Positions 1-5,531 of a stretch of DNA of 64,000 nucleotides are shown here, in pieces; within the stretch, counting starts at the first letter, position 1, and each line of letters opens with the position of its first letter. This stretch comes from an uncultured Candidatus Rokubacteria bacterium (GTDB taxonomy: Bacteria; Methylomirabilota; Methylomirabilia; Rokubacteriales; CSP1-6), in NCBI GenBank assembly GCA_963771355.1, contig CAVYTA010000005.1, positions 416,001-480,000 of the forward strand, written 5' to 3'. The notes under the pieces are model-generated. The model made no database searches and had not been told where the DNA came from. It worked only from the letters and a program-made list of their open reading frames with translations. The position numbers and the translations under genes are program-made.

Positions 1-651
1 GAGACGGGGGTGGAGTACTACACCTTCACCACCAACGATCTGACCTCGGTCATCCTCAAGCTGAAGGGCCAGAACCCTGACATCCTGCACCATATTGCCC
101 GTAATCAAGACGCGATTCTGTTTTGGCGCCAGGCGCGCGAGCAGAACTTCGAGGTGAAGGCGGTGGTGCACGCCGGCGCCACCGGGTACGGCTCGCCGGA
201 CTTCGGCAAGGCGTTCGGCAACGACGCCAACGGCCCCTTCGCGCTGATTGAGCCGGGGCCGGGCTTCGTCATCGAGAAGCTGCGGCCGGAAGGGCAGCGT
301 ATCGAGCGCGCGTACCGCGAGGCGGTGAAGGCCAAGACCGGCGCGGAAATTGCGGGCGGCCATCAGCTCTCGGGCGGCGGCCTATGGATCCTCAAGCTCG
401 TGCTCGACGCCGCCAAGACCGACGACCTCGACAAGTTCCGCGCCGCCGTCATGGCGCTGGACATGCCCACCGGCACCGGTCTGAACGGCTGGGGCGTGAA
501 GTTCGACGAGTACGGCCAGAACTCCAACCCGCGCGTGCAACACTACATGCTGCAGTGGCAGAACGGGGCGCTCGTCACCGTGTGGCCCGAGGAGTTCACC
601 ACCATGCGCGCGAAGTGGATCCCGCTCGGCGCGTGGGACCAGCGGAAGTAG
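1..651 (+). CDS. Branched-chain amino acid-type ABC transporter substrate-binding protein (5'-truncated)
   Basis: PBP1/LivJ-like C-terminal half (ILKLKGQNPDIL, GVKFDEYGQN, LQWQNG..VTVWP); followed by livHMGF; the frame is open to the window edge. Confidence 0.9.
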   Translation, partial: ETGVEYYTFTTNDLTSVILKLKGQNPDILHHIARNQDAILFWRQAREQNFEVKAVVHAGATGYGSPDFGKAFGNDANGPFALIEPGPGFVIEKLRPEGQRIERAYREAVKAKTGAEIAGGHQLSGGGLWILKLVLDAAKTDDLDKFRAAVMALDMPTGTGLNGWGVKFDEYGQNSNPRVQHYMLQWQNGALVTVWPEEFTTMRAKWIPLGAWDQRK

Positions 652-680
652 CGATCGGCTCCTTCGCCGGCATGGGCGTT

Positions 681-707
681 GACGCCCCGGGCCGCTCCCG
701 GGGCGTC
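681..707 (+). other. Intergenic stem-loop after the SBP gene (mRNA stabiliser/attenuator-like)
   Basis: Perfect 11-bp inverted repeat GACGCCCCGGG / CCCGGGGCGTC with a 5-nt loop. Confidence 0.6.
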
Positions 708-738
708 GCGCGTTCTTCCGGCCGCCCCGCCATCTGAC

Positions 739-1620
739 GTGCACGCGATTCCCCAGCTCGCCGTCTCCACCCTCCTGCTGGGCGGGGTCTACGCGCTCAT
801 TGCCGTGGGTCTGACGCTCATCTTCGGGGTGATGCGCGTGGTGAACTTCGCCCATGGCGAGTTCCTCATGCTGGCGATGTATCTCGCGTTCTGGACCTTC
901 GCGCTGCTCCAGCTCGACCCCTACGTGACGCTCGTGCTGGGGCTGCCGCTGGTTTTCGCGATCGGCCTGGCGAGCTATCAGATCGTCATGCGGCCGGTGA
1001 TCCACGCCTCCCACAACGTGCAGGTGTTCACCACGGTGGGGCTCTCCATCGCGCTGCAGAACGTCGCCCTGGTTCTCTGGACGGCGGACGCCCAGTTCAT
1101 CCGCACCTCCTACTACGCGGTGGTGGTGCGCCTCGGCAGCGCCGCGTTCAACCTCGCGCAGCTCGTCGCCTTCGTGGTCGCGGTGCTCGCCACCGCGGCG
1201 CTATTCGCTTTTCTCCGCTGGTCCTACACGGGCAAGGTCATGCGGGCGACCGCGCAGGACCGGCAGGCGGCCTCCCTCATGGGGATCGACACCGGCCGCG
1301 TGTACTCGCTGACGTGGGCGGTGGGCGTGACCTGCGTCGGCGTGGCCGGGATGCTCCTCGCGCCGATCTATCCCGTGTACCCCACCGTGGGCCTCCAGTT
1401 CGTCCTCATCGCCTACGTGGCGGTGGTGCTTGGCGGGCTCGGCGACATGGCGGGCGCGCTCATCGCCAGCCTGATCGTGGCCACGGTGGAGATCGTGGGC
1501 TCCTACCTGATCGGCACCGCGTGGAAGGAGGTCCTCTACCTCCTCCTCTTCATCGGGATCCTCGTGGTGCGCCCCGCCGGCCTCTTCGGCCAGCGCGGCG
1601 CCGAGGTGATCGGCACGTGA
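739..1620 (+). CDS. livH: Branched-chain amino acid ABC permease LivH
   Basis: GLTLIFGVMRVVNFAHGE and GKVMRATAQD motifs; GTG start at 739 chosen. Confidence 0.9.
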   Translation: MHAIPQLAVSTLLLGGVYALIAVGLTLIFGVMRVVNFAHGEFLMLAMYLAFWTFALLQLDPYVTLVLGLPLVFAIGLASYQIVMRPVIHASHNVQVFTTVGLSIALQNVALVLWTADAQFIRTSYYAVVVRLGSAAFNLAQLVAFVVAVLATAALFAFLRWSYTGKVMRATAQDRQAASLMGIDTGRVYSLTWAVGVTCVGVAGMLLAPIYPVYPTVGLQFVLIAYVAVVLGGLGDMAGALIASLIVATVEIVGSYLIGTAWKEVLYLLLFIGILVVRPAGLFGQRGAEVIGT

Positions 1621-2603
1621 GGGACGCGCTCGGCGGCGTGGGGCCGGCGGTCGCTTTCTTTGGCGTCGCCGCGCTGGTGCCCCTCGTCGTGCGCGACGCG
1701 TTCTTCCTCGACGGGCTGGTCCTCATCCTGCTGTGGGGGGCGGCGGCGTCGGCGTGGAACGTGGCCGGCGGCTATGCCGGTCAGGTGTCGCTCGGACACT
1801 CCGTCTTCTTCGGCCTGGGCGCCTACTCCGCCGCGCTGCTCGGCACCAAGTGGAATCTTTCGCCGTGGATCGCTCTCGTCGTGGGCGCGACCCTGGCCAC
1901 CCTCGTCGGGTTCGTTATTGGATTCCTCAGCAATCGCCTGCGCGGCCCGTACTTCGTCCTCGCGACCATCGCCTTCTCCCAGGTCTTCCTGATCGCCGGC
2001 AGCCGGTGGCGGGGCTTCACCTCCGGTTCCGAGGGCATTCCCGTTCCCTTCCGTCCCGGCTTCTGGACGCTCGGCCTCGCGGACAAGCGCGCGTGGGTCT
2101 ACCTGATCCTCCTCCTCGCCGTGGGCGTCTATCTCGTTCAGCTCTATCTCGAGCGGTCGCGCCGCGGCTATCAGCTCGCCGCCGTGCGCGAGGACGAGGA
2201 CGCCGCCCTGTCCCTGGGGGTGCCGGCGCGCCGGCTCAAGGTCGCCGCCATCGTGGCCAGCGCGGCCCTCACCGCGACCTGCGGGACCCTGTGGGCCCAA
2301 TACGTGGGCTTTGTCGATCCCTTCTACGTGTTCTCGGTGGATCTCTCGATTCGCTTCGCGCTCGCCGCCGTCACCGGCGGTATCGGCACCGCGCTCGGCC
2401 CCTTCCTGGGGGCCGCCCTCATCACCACACTGGAGACCTATCTCCGGGCCCACTTCGGCGGCATCGGCGCCGGGCTGGTGGGGATCTACCTGATCATCTA
2501 CGGCGTGGCCCTGATCCTGATGATGCGCTTCGCGCCGCAGGGGCTACTTCCCTGGCTCGGGCGGTGGCGGCGTCGGCGCCCGGCCGCGAGCGTCGCGTCA
2601 TGA
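1617..2603 (+). CDS. livM: Branched-chain amino acid ABC permease LivM
   Basis: WNVAGGYAGQVSLGH, RLRGPYFVLAT, AVREDEDAA motifs; GTGA overlap with livH. Confidence 0.9.
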   Translation: MRDALGGVGPAVAFFGVAALVPLVVRDAFFLDGLVLILLWGAAASAWNVAGGYAGQVSLGHSVFFGLGAYSAALLGTKWNLSPWIALVVGATLATLVGFVIGFLSNRLRGPYFVLATIAFSQVFLIAGSRWRGFTSGSEGIPVPFRPGFWTLGLADKRAWVYLILLLAVGVYLVQLYLERSRRGYQLAAVREDEDAALSLGVPARRLKVAAIVASAALTATCGTLWAQYVGFVDPFYVFSVDLSIRFALAAVTGGIGTALGPFLGAALITTLETYLRAHFGGIGAGLVGIYLIIYGVALILMMRFAPQGLLPWLGRWRRRRPAASVAS

Positions 2604-3322
2604 GCCGGCTCTCGGTGGCCGGCGTCACCAAGCGGTTCGGCGGCATCACCGCGAATAGAGAAGTCTCGTTCGAGGTGGCGCCGGGGGAGCTGGTGGGGAT
2701 CATCGGACCGAACGGATCGGGCAAATCGACGCTCTTCGAGATCATCAGCGGGTTCTACCACCCCGACGCGGGCGAGGTGCGCCTGGACGGACAACGCCTC
2801 ACCGGGCTCTCGCCGGACCGCGTATGTCGCCTCGGCATCGCGCGTACGTTTCAGAAGCTGCGGCCGTTCGCGGGGATGAGCGTGGTCGACAACGTGATGG
2901 TGGGCGCGCTCACGCGCACCCGCGACGTGCGGCACGCCCGCACGCGGGCCCATGCCCTGCTCGAGCGGGTGGGGCTCGCGGAGAAGGCGCTGGCTCATGC
3001 GGGCACGCTCTCCACCGGCCAGCGCAAGCGCCTGGAGTTGGCGCGGGCCCTCGCCACCGAGCCGCGCGTGCTGCTGCTCGACGAGGTGACCGGCGGGGTG
3101 GATCAGCGGAGCATTCCCGGCCTGGTCCAGCTCGTGCGCGACCTCCATCGGGATGGGCTGACCCTGCTCGTGATCGAGCACAACATGCGCGTCATCACCG
3201 CCGTCGCGCAGCGCATCGTGGCGCTCTTCCTCGGCGAGAAGATCGCCGACGGCGCCCCCGACGTGGTCACACGGGACCGCCGGGTCATCGAGGCCTACCT
3301 CGGCGCGGCCTACACTCGATGA
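2600..3322 (+). CDS. livG: ABC ATP-binding protein LivG
   Basis: Walker A GPNGSGKS, LLLDE, IEH, C-terminal VIEAYLG; ATGA overlap. Confidence 0.9.
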   Translation: MSRLSVAGVTKRFGGITANREVSFEVAPGELVGIIGPNGSGKSTLFEIISGFYHPDAGEVRLDGQRLTGLSPDRVCRLGIARTFQKLRPFAGMSVVDNVMVGALTRTRDVRHARTRAHALLERVGLAEKALAHAGTLSTGQRKRLELARALATEPRVLLLDEVTGGVDQRSIPGLVQLVRDLHRDGLTLLVIEHNMRVITAVAQRIVALFLGEKIADGAPDVVTRDRRVIEAYLGAAYTR

Positions 3323-4047
3323 GCGCGCCGCTGCTCGCCGTGGAGGGCCTCGACGTCGCCTACGGCGACTTCCAGGTGCTGTGGCAGGCCGCGCTGGAGG
3401 TGGGCGAGGGGGAGATCGTGGCCGTGCTCGGGCCCAACGGCGCCGGCAAGTCCACGCTGATGAACACCATCTCCGGGCTCATCGCGCCGCGCGCCGGCCG
3501 CATCACCTTCCGCGGCAAGCGGATCGAGGGCTTGCCCGCGCACCGGACGGTGGGCGAGGGCCTGGCGCACGTGCTGGAGCGCCGGCGCCTCTTCCCATTC
3601 CTCACCGTGCTCGACAACGTGCTCCTCGGCGCCCACAATCCGGCGGCGCGTCCGCACCGCGACGAGAGCCTCGCGCGCGTCGAGCGCCTCTTCCCGATGA
3701 TCCCGGCCCGGCGCGGCCAGCTCGCCCACTCGCTCTCGGGGGGCGAGCAGCAGATGGTGGCGATCGCGCGCGGGCTCATGGCGCGGCCGCGGCTCCTCAT
3801 GATCGACGAGCCGTTCCTGGGGCTGGCCCCGCGTGTCGTCGAGGAGCTGGGCGCTCTCATGCGGCGCATCCGAGACGAGCAGGGGATCGGCATCGTCTTC
3901 ATCGAGCAGAACGTGGAGCTGGCGCTCCGGCTGGCTGACCGCGGCTATGTCCTGGAGTCCGGGCGCACCATCCTTCACGGCGCGTCCGAGGAGCTGCTCC
4001 GGTCCGCCGAGGTCAAACGCATATTTCTGGGTGACGTTTCTCTCTGA
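3319..4047 (+). CDS. livF: ABC ATP-binding protein LivF
   Basis: GPNGAGKS, LSGGEQQM, IEQN; ATGA overlap. Confidence 0.9.
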   Translation: MSAPLLAVEGLDVAYGDFQVLWQAALEVGEGEIVAVLGPNGAGKSTLMNTISGLIAPRAGRITFRGKRIEGLPAHRTVGEGLAHVLERRRLFPFLTVLDNVLLGAHNPAARPHRDESLARVERLFPMIPARRGQLAHSLSGGEQQMVAIARGLMARPRLLMIDEPFLGLAPRVVEELGALMRRIRDEQGIGIVFIEQNVELALRLADRGYVLESGRTILHGASEELLRSAEVKRIFLGDVSL

Positions 4048-4109
4048 CGGGAGGAATCCCCAAAACAATACGGTTGCGCCCATCGAATACGCGGAGTATG
4101 GTGCTTTCC

Positions 4110-4397
4110 ATGAGCCGCCGGTTGCTGCTCAGCTTCGTCCTCGTTGCGAGCCTGCTGTCGCTGCGCTCCCTCGTGCTCGCGTCCGGGTTCGAGCAGACCT
4201 GGATCCCGGGTATGTACGACGCCGGTGACCTGGACGACGCCTTCGCGCTCTCCAACTTCAAGGCGCTCGGAGCTCCCGCGGCGCCCAGCGTGGACGCGTC
4301 CGCCCTCGTCGTCGCGCAGGTCGAGTCCGCCGCACCCGACGCGACGCACAGTCGCGCCGTCCGCACCGCTTCCAGCCGCGCCCCGCCTCTGTCCTAG
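4110..4397 (+). CDS. Small signal-peptide ORF with C-terminal RAPP motif (putative ribosome-arrest leader peptide)
   Basis: MSRRLLLSFVLVASLLSL signal, WIPGMYDAGDLDD acidic motif, Ala/Pro/Ser-rich linker, ends SSRAPPLS*; alternative start at 4098. Confidence 0.7.
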   Translation: MSRRLLLSFVLVASLLSLRSLVLASGFEQTWIPGMYDAGDLDDAFALSNFKALGAPAAPSVDASALVVAQVESAAPDATHSRAVRTASSRAPPLS

Positions 4398-4489
4398 CTT
4401 TCCCGATGGGCCGGCCGCGGTAGACTCGCGGCCCTCGCCGACCTCGGGTCCGCGAGATTTGCTCACCCGTCAACTCCGGGAGGCACCGC

Positions 4490-4759
4490 ATGCGTCATCT
4501 GGCTTGCTGTCTGGCCTTGCTCGCGAGTCTCGCGCTCGTCGGGAGCCCGGTCGTCGAGGCCGTCGATTCCGCCATGAAGGGGACCGTAAAGGAAGTGCAT
4601 ACCGCCATCGGGATGGTCATCCTCGAGGACGGCACCGAGCTGCGTGTCATGAGCGGCGAGCTCATGGCGAAGATCCGCGAGGGCGACAAGATCGAGGTGA
4701 TCTTCGAGGAAAAGGACGGCCAAAAGGTCGTCAGTGCCGTCGAGGTCACCGGGCAATAG
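4490..4759 (+). CDS. Small secreted beta-barrel/OB-fold protein (DUF1344/CusF-like)
   Basis: GGAGG RBS; signal peptide; KGTVKEV..VILEDG..IREGDKIEVIFEEKDG..VV pattern. Confidence 0.7.
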   Translation: MRHLACCLALLASLALVGSPVVEAVDSAMKGTVKEVHTAIGMVILEDGTELRVMSGELMAKIREGDKIEVIFEEKDGQKVVSAVEVTGQ

Positions 4760-4775
4760 CCCGGCCCTCGGTGGG

Positions 4776-4832
4776 CCGCGTCGGTCGGGGCGACGGGTTG
4801 ATCCGGGCCGTCGTTTCGGCCGGCGCGGTTTT
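4776..4832 (+). terminator. Intrinsic terminator-like hairpin
   Basis: 21-bp stem (4776-4796/4808-4828, 5 G-U pairs) followed by TTTT. Confidence 0.65.
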
Positions 4833-4900
4833 CATGATTCGTAACTGATCCGGGTGGCAGGAAGTCGAGTTGGGCGAGTGTGGGCTCGTTCAGCTCGATG

Positions 4901-4948
4901 CGCGTCGGCGGCGCTGTGGACCGGCGCCGCCGGCGCGGTTCTTTTTTT
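4901..4948 (+). terminator. Intrinsic terminator
   Basis: 16-bp stem (4901-4916/4922-4937) followed by GTTCTTTTTTT. Confidence 0.75.
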
Positions 4949-5027
4949 CGCGCCCCGCCGCTACGCGCCCCGCCGCCTGAGCGTTCCGGTATACTCGGGC
5001 CTAGAGGTTCTCAAGGAGGTTCCGGCA

Positions 5028-5531
5028 ATGGCGACGGCGACGGTGAACGGGCTCAAGGCCAAGTCCGACGCAGCATGGGCCAATATCAACAAGCAGCTCC
5101 AGGGCATGGAGCCGTTCCTCGACAAGTCCGACGCCCCCGGTGAGTGGACCACGCGGCAGGTGATCTGCCACCTCCTCTTCGAGCCCGGCTGGGACCCCGT
5201 CGCCCTCCTCAAGAGCTTCTCGACCTCGAACCTGCCGGTGGTGGAGATCACCAGCGTGTCCGACACCAGCGGCTCCCGTCAGACGGCGTCGCTCAAGCAG
5301 CTCCTGGACAGCCTCGACGCCCAGCGCAAGGCCATCTGGGGATATCTCGAGGGGCTCTCCGACGCCGACCTCAAGCGCAAGGCGCGCATCCCGCTGTTCA
5401 AGGAGCTCATGGGGAACGAGGAAGTGCCCATCCCCGTGTATGTCGGTGCGCTCTTCGACTATCACTGGAACGATCACGCCGGCCAGCTCGCCAAGATCCG
5501 CAAGGCGGCCGGGCTACCCGACGCCAGGTAG
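5028..5531 (+). CDS. DinB/YfiT-like family protein
   Basis: AAGGAGG RBS, TATACT -10 at 4990; EWTTRQVICHL and HWNDHAGQL His motifs. Confidence 0.8.
   Translation: MATATVNGLKAKSDAAWANINKQLQGMEPFLDKSDAPGEWTTRQVICHLLFEPGWDPVALLKSFSTSNLPVVEITSVSDTSGSRQTASLKQLLDSLDAQRKAIWGYLEGLSDADLKRKARIPLFKELMGNEEVPIPVYVGALFDYHWNDHAGQLAKIRKAAGLPDAR

Follow-up and report, generated by a model that had tools for sequence, protein, structure and literature searches.

A predicted exported arrest leader with an aspartate patch upstream of diverse envelope-type genes in Rokubacteria

On the evidence of sequence comparison, a small open reading frame in the 64,000-nucleotide stretch of Rokubacteria DNA analysed here (the window) probably encodes an exported arrest leader that controls the next gene. 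Judged from homologue and profile searches, the reading frame (P0001; 4110-4397, +; ATG at 4110, TAG at 4395-4397) is real, far beyond chance, because in 26 of its 27 close homologues RAPP is likewise followed by two final residues; the 27th is a 55-residue fragment. If it is such a leader, the chance that its cue is a cation or a proton falls a little short of even. The known nascent-chain sensors of outside ligands, CruR and CutF, use cysteines for copper in the excerpts of the literature drawn on here. With more than 2,000 clusters, CruR-like geometry and an aspartate-only site, the family of the leader makes it possible to ask directly if the cue of an arrest peptide can be a hard cation, pH or the membrane potential, and it is a natural counterpart to engineered acidic pulling constructs.

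The original prediction described a reading frame of about 95 residues with a signal segment, an acidic motif and RAPP before the stop, and each of these lies where it was placed. The product has 95 residues, of which residues 1-24 (4110-4181, +) form a predicted cleavable signal peptide; the call was made from hydropathy and the A-x-A pattern. A hydrophobic core precedes the predicted cleavage site, and the family pattern of A-x-A then S reads V-L-A then S in the window peptide. Among 239 dereplicated members, alanine stands at position -3 in 90% and at -1 in 91%. The aspartate motif, W31-I-P-G-M-Y-D37-A-G-D40-L-D42-D43 (WIPGMYDAGDLDD), occupies residues 31-43 (4200-4238, +) and was delimited by conservation across the same 239 members. 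RAPP, the predicted arrest motif (4377-4388, +), is followed by L-S-TAG and so ends two codons before the stop. In the AlphaFold model of the leader, residues 2-24 are helical and confidence is low beyond the signal helix (pLDDT 56-58 over the aspartate motif), so that the fold of the motif is not resolved. A Tat signal was considered on account of an N-terminal RR pair and rejected: a TatFind-like pattern occurs in only 9 of 190 members and in none of 10 leaders chosen by a TatA-like downstream pattern. Upstream of the leader, a branched-chain-type ABC transporter operon (10-4047) ends 63 nt before it, and the upstream neighbours vary among close relatives.

The leader profile collects 2,115 clusters at 50% identity (E<=0.001; the best 150 of the 2,115 are listed) and 1,210 at E<=1e-10. 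No Pfam or NCBIfam family model matches any of the 26 members scanned, and the proposal that this is an uncharacterised family stands in that sense, for what is a large family. A search with the single leader sequence found matches in 35 of 61 related genomes. A 26-row profile matched 78 of 170 genomes of the phylum, including 65/107 and 12/15 in two families and 0/47 in nine other families. The family appears to be largely confined to Rokubacteria: of 77 loci from genomes of all species, sorted by title, 63 carry the name Rokubacteria or Methylomirabilota/Methylomirabilia and 14 carry another. There are at least 1-14 matches per genome, scoring having been limited to 29 candidates in each; the genome of the window has a single copy. 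In a protein atlas built on language-model features, the neighbours of the leader are unnamed Rokuibacteriota/Methylomirabilota clusters, and the nearest named clusters, which serve as leads only, are a DUF2946-named one (PF20558) at 0.92 and then SecM_small at 0.91 with 116 shared features. A PDB sequence search with the N-terminal leader profile returned signal-peptide-like noise only, and a metagenome scan for the leader gave one locus.

Conservation of RAPP among homologues, on which the original prediction depended, is high by two measures. Among 163 members found with a model that contained RAPP, and hence biased towards it, RxPP is present in 158, absent in three and cut off in two; the sequence G-x-aromatic-D lies 56-59 residues before the arginine in 153 of the 158, and a tail of two residues follows RxPP in 107 of them. 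Because that set was biased, a search was run with a 50-column N-terminal model lacking the RAPP columns; it matched 82 of 151 genomes, and only members new to the analysis were fetched (n=53). RxPP occurs in 46 of these 53, where six-frame translation gives a background of 2.5% for a 30-position window: 29 are RAPP, eight RSPP, seven RGPP and one RDPP, and one scored as RLPP also ends in RGPP. The remaining seven comprise five with RASP or RAAP and two with early stops. In the 239 dereplicated members, all chosen to have RxPP, RAPP, RGPP, RSPP and RDPP number 203, 14, 20 and 2, respectively, and there is synonymous variation at all four RAPP codons across the family. A subgroup (L212, L215, L217, L228 and L229) has RASP or RAAP at unchanged spacing, which may be either an arrest variant or a decayed one.

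The motif that sits at a fixed distance from RAPP is unusual in its composition. The statistics given here refer to the 239 members, dereplicated at 60% and all selected for RxPP. The family consensus is A-x-A, then S-P-P-D-P-[TS]-W-[IVL]-x-G-hydrophobic-[YWF]-D-[DNG]-[AG]-D-[YFH]-D-D-V-V, and its core, W-x-x-G-x-[YWF]-D-x-x-D-x-D-D, lies 56-59 residues before RxPP. The tryptophan is conserved in 91% of members, the glycine in 100% and the four aspartates in 98, 95, 99 and 86%. The distance from the glycine to the arginine is 57-58 residues in 221 of the 239, the linker being conserved in length but having no conserved sequence. In the window peptide there are 46 residues between D43 and R90, against 45 in CruR, and CxxC is found near the motif in 0 of the 239 members; the description of the motif as acidic and not of the CxxC type is thus borne out. 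Aspartate, glutamate and asparagine occur in the motif in the ratio 1084:9:77 and in the linker in the ratio 381:359:43. Since glutamate is nearly excluded and asparagine is the main substitute, a stereospecific site or a particular turn geometry seems to be favoured over bulk charge, and the same bias would favour a hard cation over pure charge pulling. Similar carboxylate/amide loops are binding sites for Ca2+ or Mg2+. Asx-turns, or a protein partner that recognises the patch, could also lie behind the preference for aspartate. A lanthanide, raised as a cue by the original prediction, was dropped from consideration: no downstream gene scanned indicates it, and a PQQ-dehydrogenase-like ORF elsewhere in the genome is unlinked.

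Small secretory uORFs ending in RAPP or RGPP before diverse genes are an established class in the sections of Fujiwara et al. 2025 (PMC12992588) drawn on here, and the leader falls within it, having fewer than 300 residues, a predicted localization signal, a C-terminal RAPP and a co-oriented downstream gene. The signal, as called by hydropathy and the A-x-A pattern, lies about 68 residues from the arrest site, the criterion of the class being more than 30. The same sections report that glycine, serine or aspartate at the second position of RAPP keeps full or partial arrest in ApdA/ApdP mutagenesis, and that 7/7 such proteins from Streptomyces lividans, and CruR, stalled in vitro. Arrest of the ribosome at the RAPP of the leader is, by analogy, likely, because RxPP is conserved, its variants are arrest-competent in ApdA and ApdP, and the S. 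lividans proteins and CruR stalled. At least one protein with the motif of the leader family, PYM39766.1, is in the source list of Fig. 4B of that paper. The main text mentions neither Methylomirabilota nor Rokubacteria, and its sections 7, 13 and 14 contain no aspartate motif, leaderless promoter or multi-copy expansion, the sensor motifs of section 14 being of Cys/His type. We found no paper that describes the leader family, in a literature search that took in part of the supplementary data of PMC12992588.

The closest parallel in function would be CruR (Bp2923) of Bordetella pertussis, of the DUF2946 family (PF11162), which according to excerpts of PMC9426467 likewise has an export signal and, some 45 residues ahead of its C-terminal RAPP, a conserved motif; the 45 residues between its CxxC and RAPP are conserved and are required for regulation. 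In both, the spacing is fixed within one or two residues, the peptide is the first gene of its unit and a long spacer follows. Unlike CruR, the leader family has an aspartate-only patch in place of CxxC, gives no match to PF11162 at E<=1 in 26 members, is 95-100 residues long rather than 145, and has no TonB or copper-homeostasis target among 83 downstream ORFs scanned (CusA/CzcA-type RND genes follow in 8/190 cases); its predicted output is unmasking of a Shine-Dalgarno (SD) sequence, as opposed to Rho termination in CruR. CutF of Rhodobacter capsulatus, in the portion of bioRxiv 10.1101/2025.02.05.636593 available, is, as is proposed for the leader, a secreted nascent sensor whose stall melts a stem that hides the next SD, but it relies on CxxxC and an EF-P-dependent PPP and its ligand promotes the stall, whereas the leader family has RAPP and no Cys motif. 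SecM, ApdA, ApdP, the RQH family and SecM_small (PF10818) resemble the leader in having a signal and a RAPP-like motif, and perhaps in stall-on control through a stem (PMC10987492, in part). They differ in lying upstream of secA or secDF and in having variable spacers between signal and arrest motif, as against a fixed one with a conserved internal motif; no secA, secDF or yidC target occurs among the 83 downstream ORFs, and TatA follows in 11/190. By analogy, then, the leader would work like CruR and CutF, yet it lacks their CxxC and Pfam signatures, and it does not appear to be a sec-linked member of the RQH family.

How a stall might be read out was addressed in the original prediction, which had the SD of the downstream gene (GGAGG, 4479-4483, +) pair with either of two upstream sites and close a multi-hairpin stem that a stalled ribosome would melt. 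The complementarity is present. GCCTCT on the Pro/Leu codons (4385-4390, +), the candidate anti-SD, can form six pairs with 4479-4484, compared with eight in close relatives, the helix being shorter in the window because CTG replaces the CTC found in three close relatives; GCTTTCC (4397-4403, +) is a second SD-complementary site. ViennaRNA nevertheless gives p<0.05 for pairing with the Pro codons in the window and about 0.06 for GCTTTCC, and the SD is predicted in a weak local hairpin, not in the anti-SD helix. The 92-nt spacer between leader and target contains nested hairpins (4413-4433 and 4434-4456, within 4406-4470, +; similar hairpins occur in L002 and L003), and the centroid fold does include 4406-4410/4466-4470 and 4413-4420/4426-4433, but shuffled versions of the region fold just as well (z +0.32, z -0.33). 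In orthologues from the genus, the SD is predicted to pair with the Pro/Leu codons in 6/7 (p 0.66-1.0).

Across the family the signal is clearer. The first Pro codon of RAPP is CCT in 64/190 members, the figure for Pro-Pro pairs across the genome being 9.3%. Between the Arg codon and 15 nt past the stop, 121/190 members have anti-SD words, as compared with 19-61 in five shifted windows. Pairing of the SD with the stretch of 21 nt that starts at the Arg codon is predicted in 33/114 loci, against 5/150 ordinary gene pairs and 13/114 shuffles. The pairing signal peaks on the Pro codons of RAPP, and this apparent anti-SD bias is new relative to the earlier reading. The melting of a stem by a stalled ribosome thus has a predicted stall-on geometry family-wide, but the SD helix is not the dominant predicted fold in the window, and an anti-SD helix is predicted in only 33-43 of 114 family loci. 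It counts against a switch that blocking the ribosome footprint gives a median gain in opening of the ribosome-binding site of 1.1 kcal/mol (41/118 above 2, seven below -2). Locus-specific covariation between anti-SD and SD was not borne out, since the gap of 0.4 kcal/mol between own and swapped partners was equalled by a control segment; partner-swap permutations gave 64/5000, and 6/5000 for 62 dereplicated loci, but the own partner beat the mean swap in only 55/113.

The leader is likely to be translated from a leaderless mRNA and to head its own transcript. A predicted -10 box, TATGGT (4097-4102, +), lies 7 nt before the ATG and 17 nt after a predicted -35 box, TTGCGC (4074-4079, +), and most of 60 family examples have TTG some 17 nt upstream of the -10 box. 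TANNNT occurs 4-11 nt before the start in 63/159 members, against 15/1539 shifted controls, and in 59 of the 63 at 7-10 nt. A sigma-70 scan of the window missed this promoter because its consensus was strict; the box was found by family comparison, and the predicted promoter was not part of the original prediction. RNA contigs from four runs of four studies, which come without strand or level, may derive from DNA and were selected for holding the window stretch, cover 4153-4854, and one of them (4315-4591) bridges leader, spacer and target; their absence over the flanks (3908-4138 and 4909-5524) is not informative. In three studies they end at 4841-4854, near the first of three strong hairpins ending in a U-tract (4773-4949, +; z -7.1, with terminator-like matches), which is a weak hint of a 3' end. 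These hairpins are likely to be the 3' end of the leader-target unit. The region 4760-4950 is 76-93% identical in six genomes of the same genus, with a near-invariant core of 45 nt; full-length hairpins were found nowhere outside the genus among 61 genomes searched, and Rfam gave only a sub-threshold match (20 bits against 79). The hairpins are kept where the target gene upstream of them has decayed, and could also be a 3'-derived small RNA. After the terminator, a conserved TATACT -10-like box (4993-4998) precedes a DinB-superfamily gene (5029-5531), which suggests that this gene has its own promoter.

The target in the window is a small predicted secreted protein of 89 residues (P0002; 4490-4759, +), DUF1344-like, whose AlphaFold model (pLDDT 94.5) points to an OB-fold like those of PilY2, SilF and CusF; its best matches are PilY2 (Z 10.9, rmsd 1.4 over 64) and SilF (Z 9.3, rmsd 1.4 over 62). 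The DUF1344/CusF label is below both Pfam cut-offs for the window protein, including that of PF11604, and orthologues are above the cut-off for DUF1344. The metal site of CusF and SilF is made of conserved His/Met/Met, and no His or Met is conserved in P0002 and its kin (14 homologues). The CusF-like label that the original prediction gave to the target therefore does not extend to the ligands: the fold is an OB-fold without conserved CusF-type ligands. The gene is intact in 4/7 genus orthologues and internally deleted in 3/7 (L002, L005 and L007), in which the promoter pattern, leader, SD pairing and 3' hairpins are all kept. The bond between leader and target is therefore loose at this locus, and the deletions count against a tight link. 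They appear to represent at least two separate events.

Elsewhere in the family, the downstream genes seem to be diverse genes of envelope type with no fixed neighbour. A confident SD and ORF lie within 300 nt of the leader in 125/190 cases, the co-oriented gene being at a median of 118 nt, and an N-terminal hydrophobic segment is found in 67/125 first downstream genes as against 271/2013 genes of the genome. The catalogue of downstream genes that the original prediction had proposed labels 142 of the 190 (45 are unlabelled and three too short), with heuristic gene calls and among kin that are not independent. The commonest target (17/190) is a secreted protein of about 420 residues, of which the members scanned matched nothing in Pfam or NCBIfam (L031, L033, L034 and relatives); it is followed by DUF1344 (15), TatA (11), nucleotidyltransferases (9), CusA/CzcA RND proteins (8), ArnT-like proteins (8), asparagine-synthase-type amidotransferases (8), response regulators (6) and HpnI (5). 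There are also several other families of small secreted proteins, and CNNM, prepilin and MarR are among the targets seen once. The family protein PYM39766.1 precedes an efflux adaptor gene. Of the 83 downstream ORFs that were scanned, none belongs to a SecA, SecDF, YidC, TonB-receptor, copper-chaperone or oxidase family by these searches. In other bacteria, genes of the ArnT type and those for hopanoid modification respond to low Mg2+ or to acid; TatA, regulators and metal efflux pumps among the targets show no one obvious cation logic.

From these elements a mechanism can be proposed, in which a stall at RAPP would free the next SD and the aspartate patch would read an outside divalent cation (Ca2+/Mg2+) or a proton, with release on binding; we hold it tentatively, its chance being distinctly below even. 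The leaderless mRNA would be translated and the signal peptide would take the ribosome to SecYEG. The stall would then place the two Pro codons in the P site and the A site, the arrangement shown for ApdA, ApdP and CruR. In the window peptide the aspartates are 57, 54, 52 and 51 residues from the A-site Pro (about two more in most members), and the stalled chain would thus put them at or just past the translocon exit; the CxxC of CruR is at 50-53. The stalled ribosome would cover the anti-SD and turn the next gene on, and the patch would set how long the stall lasts. Once a cation bound, the patch would fold and so draw the chain out of the stall, after which the anti-SD would re-pair and the gene go off; conversely, if the cation were absent or the pH low, the stall would persist and the gene stay on. 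The direction of this last step, release on cation binding, is the weakest part of the proposal. Promoter, leader and spacer together would form a portable, riboswitch-like cassette before many different envelope genes. The fullest version, a lineage-wide portable 'peptide riboswitch' in which an all-aspartate site at the translocon exit reads periplasmic Ca2+/Mg2+ or protons and which has been copied before dozens of unrelated envelope genes, we consider somewhat unlikely. If it were true, Rokubacteria would have a cation or acid-stress regulon built of nascent chains and not of a transcription factor, RAPP peptides would be seen to sense hard cations as well as copper at thiol/His sites, and a hypothetical protein that is common in an abundant, uncultured lineage of soil would gain a role, the genes behind it being marked as one co-regulated envelope set.

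The geometry of the patch fits both a ligand site and a voltage handle, because its distance from the arrest site is close both to that of the CxxC of CruR and to that of an engineered D5 stretch. It is therefore conceivable, if unlikely, that the arrest leader senses the force of export or the membrane potential. The proton-motive force would then pull the acidic patch and the short hydrophobic helix after it through SecYEG, so that a lack of energy or a blocked export path would lengthen the stall and induce envelope genes. The D5 stretch undergoes a potential-dependent pull about 50 residues from the end of the arrest peptide (bioRxiv 10.1101/310698, PMC6028853, in part), and hydrophobic segments pull from about 45 residues (excerpts of PMC7886326). 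The family consensus has V-V-x-x-I directly after the aspartates, and the great diversity of targets, TatA among them, would fit this reading. An electrophoretic pull, however, should treat glutamate as it does aspartate, which the motif plainly does not, its main substitute being the neutral asparagine; the tryptophan, glycine and aromatic residue are near-invariant as well; the patch, at 51-57 residues or about two more, is somewhat past the D5 peak; and the Sec components SecA, SecDF and YidC are missing from the 83 downstream ORFs. The same conservation of non-acidic residues (S-P-P-D-P-x-W, glycine, aromatic) is what one would expect if the Trp-Gly-aromatic-Asp motif were a docking site for a periplasmic or translocon-associated puller protein whose availability is the cue. 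Elements in the spacer regulate SecM and VemP (PMC10987492, in part), and restriction of the leader to two families of one order would suit a lineage-specific partner, but no such partner came to light and the leader has no constant genetic companion; we judge docking to be quite improbable.

It is more doubtful still that the stall acts on transcription or RNA fate and not on access to the SD, shielding a C-rich Rho site as CruR does (PMC9426467, in part), with an output that may include the structured RNA at 4773-4949. CruR-like control through Rho is conceivable because the region of the leader stop is C-rich, C being about twice as frequent as G from 36 nt before to 12 nt after it, and leader and 3' hairpins persist together where the target has decayed. 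This richness comes in part from Pro, Ser and Arg codons, though, the Pro codons are precisely where the anti-SD signal has its maximum, and an RNA output would have to reckon with full-length hairpins confined to one genus in the 61 genomes. The survival of an intact leader beside a deleted target (3/7), with its own predicted promoter and no fixed neighbour, would also be explained if the product were a free secreted peptide in which RAPP paces export or is vestigial and the next gene is not controlled at all. We regard this as very improbable, for RAPP is strongly excluded from ordinary proteins (PMC12992588, in part), the codons of the motif carry an anti-SD bias with predicted SD pairing, a co-oriented envelope gene stands close behind, and the linker is conserved in length and not in sequence. 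Control of the next gene by an exported arrest leader, with a cation or proton as its possible cue, is the reading that we prefer.

Some further arrangements of the leader were observed. Divergent back-to-back pairs a few hundred bases apart occur at L187, L199, G125:C36, G137:C3 and G159:C74, and L160 has a tandem pair in which each leader has its own small secreted gene. The genome of the window also contains two more signal-bearing ORFs that end in RAPP (G000:C6:1464178-1464564, +, and G000:C7:384957-385523, +). These have no aspartate patch and carry the His-rich motifs HVH...GLYNEQH and HSVHH...C...H, and they are likely to belong to other leader families.
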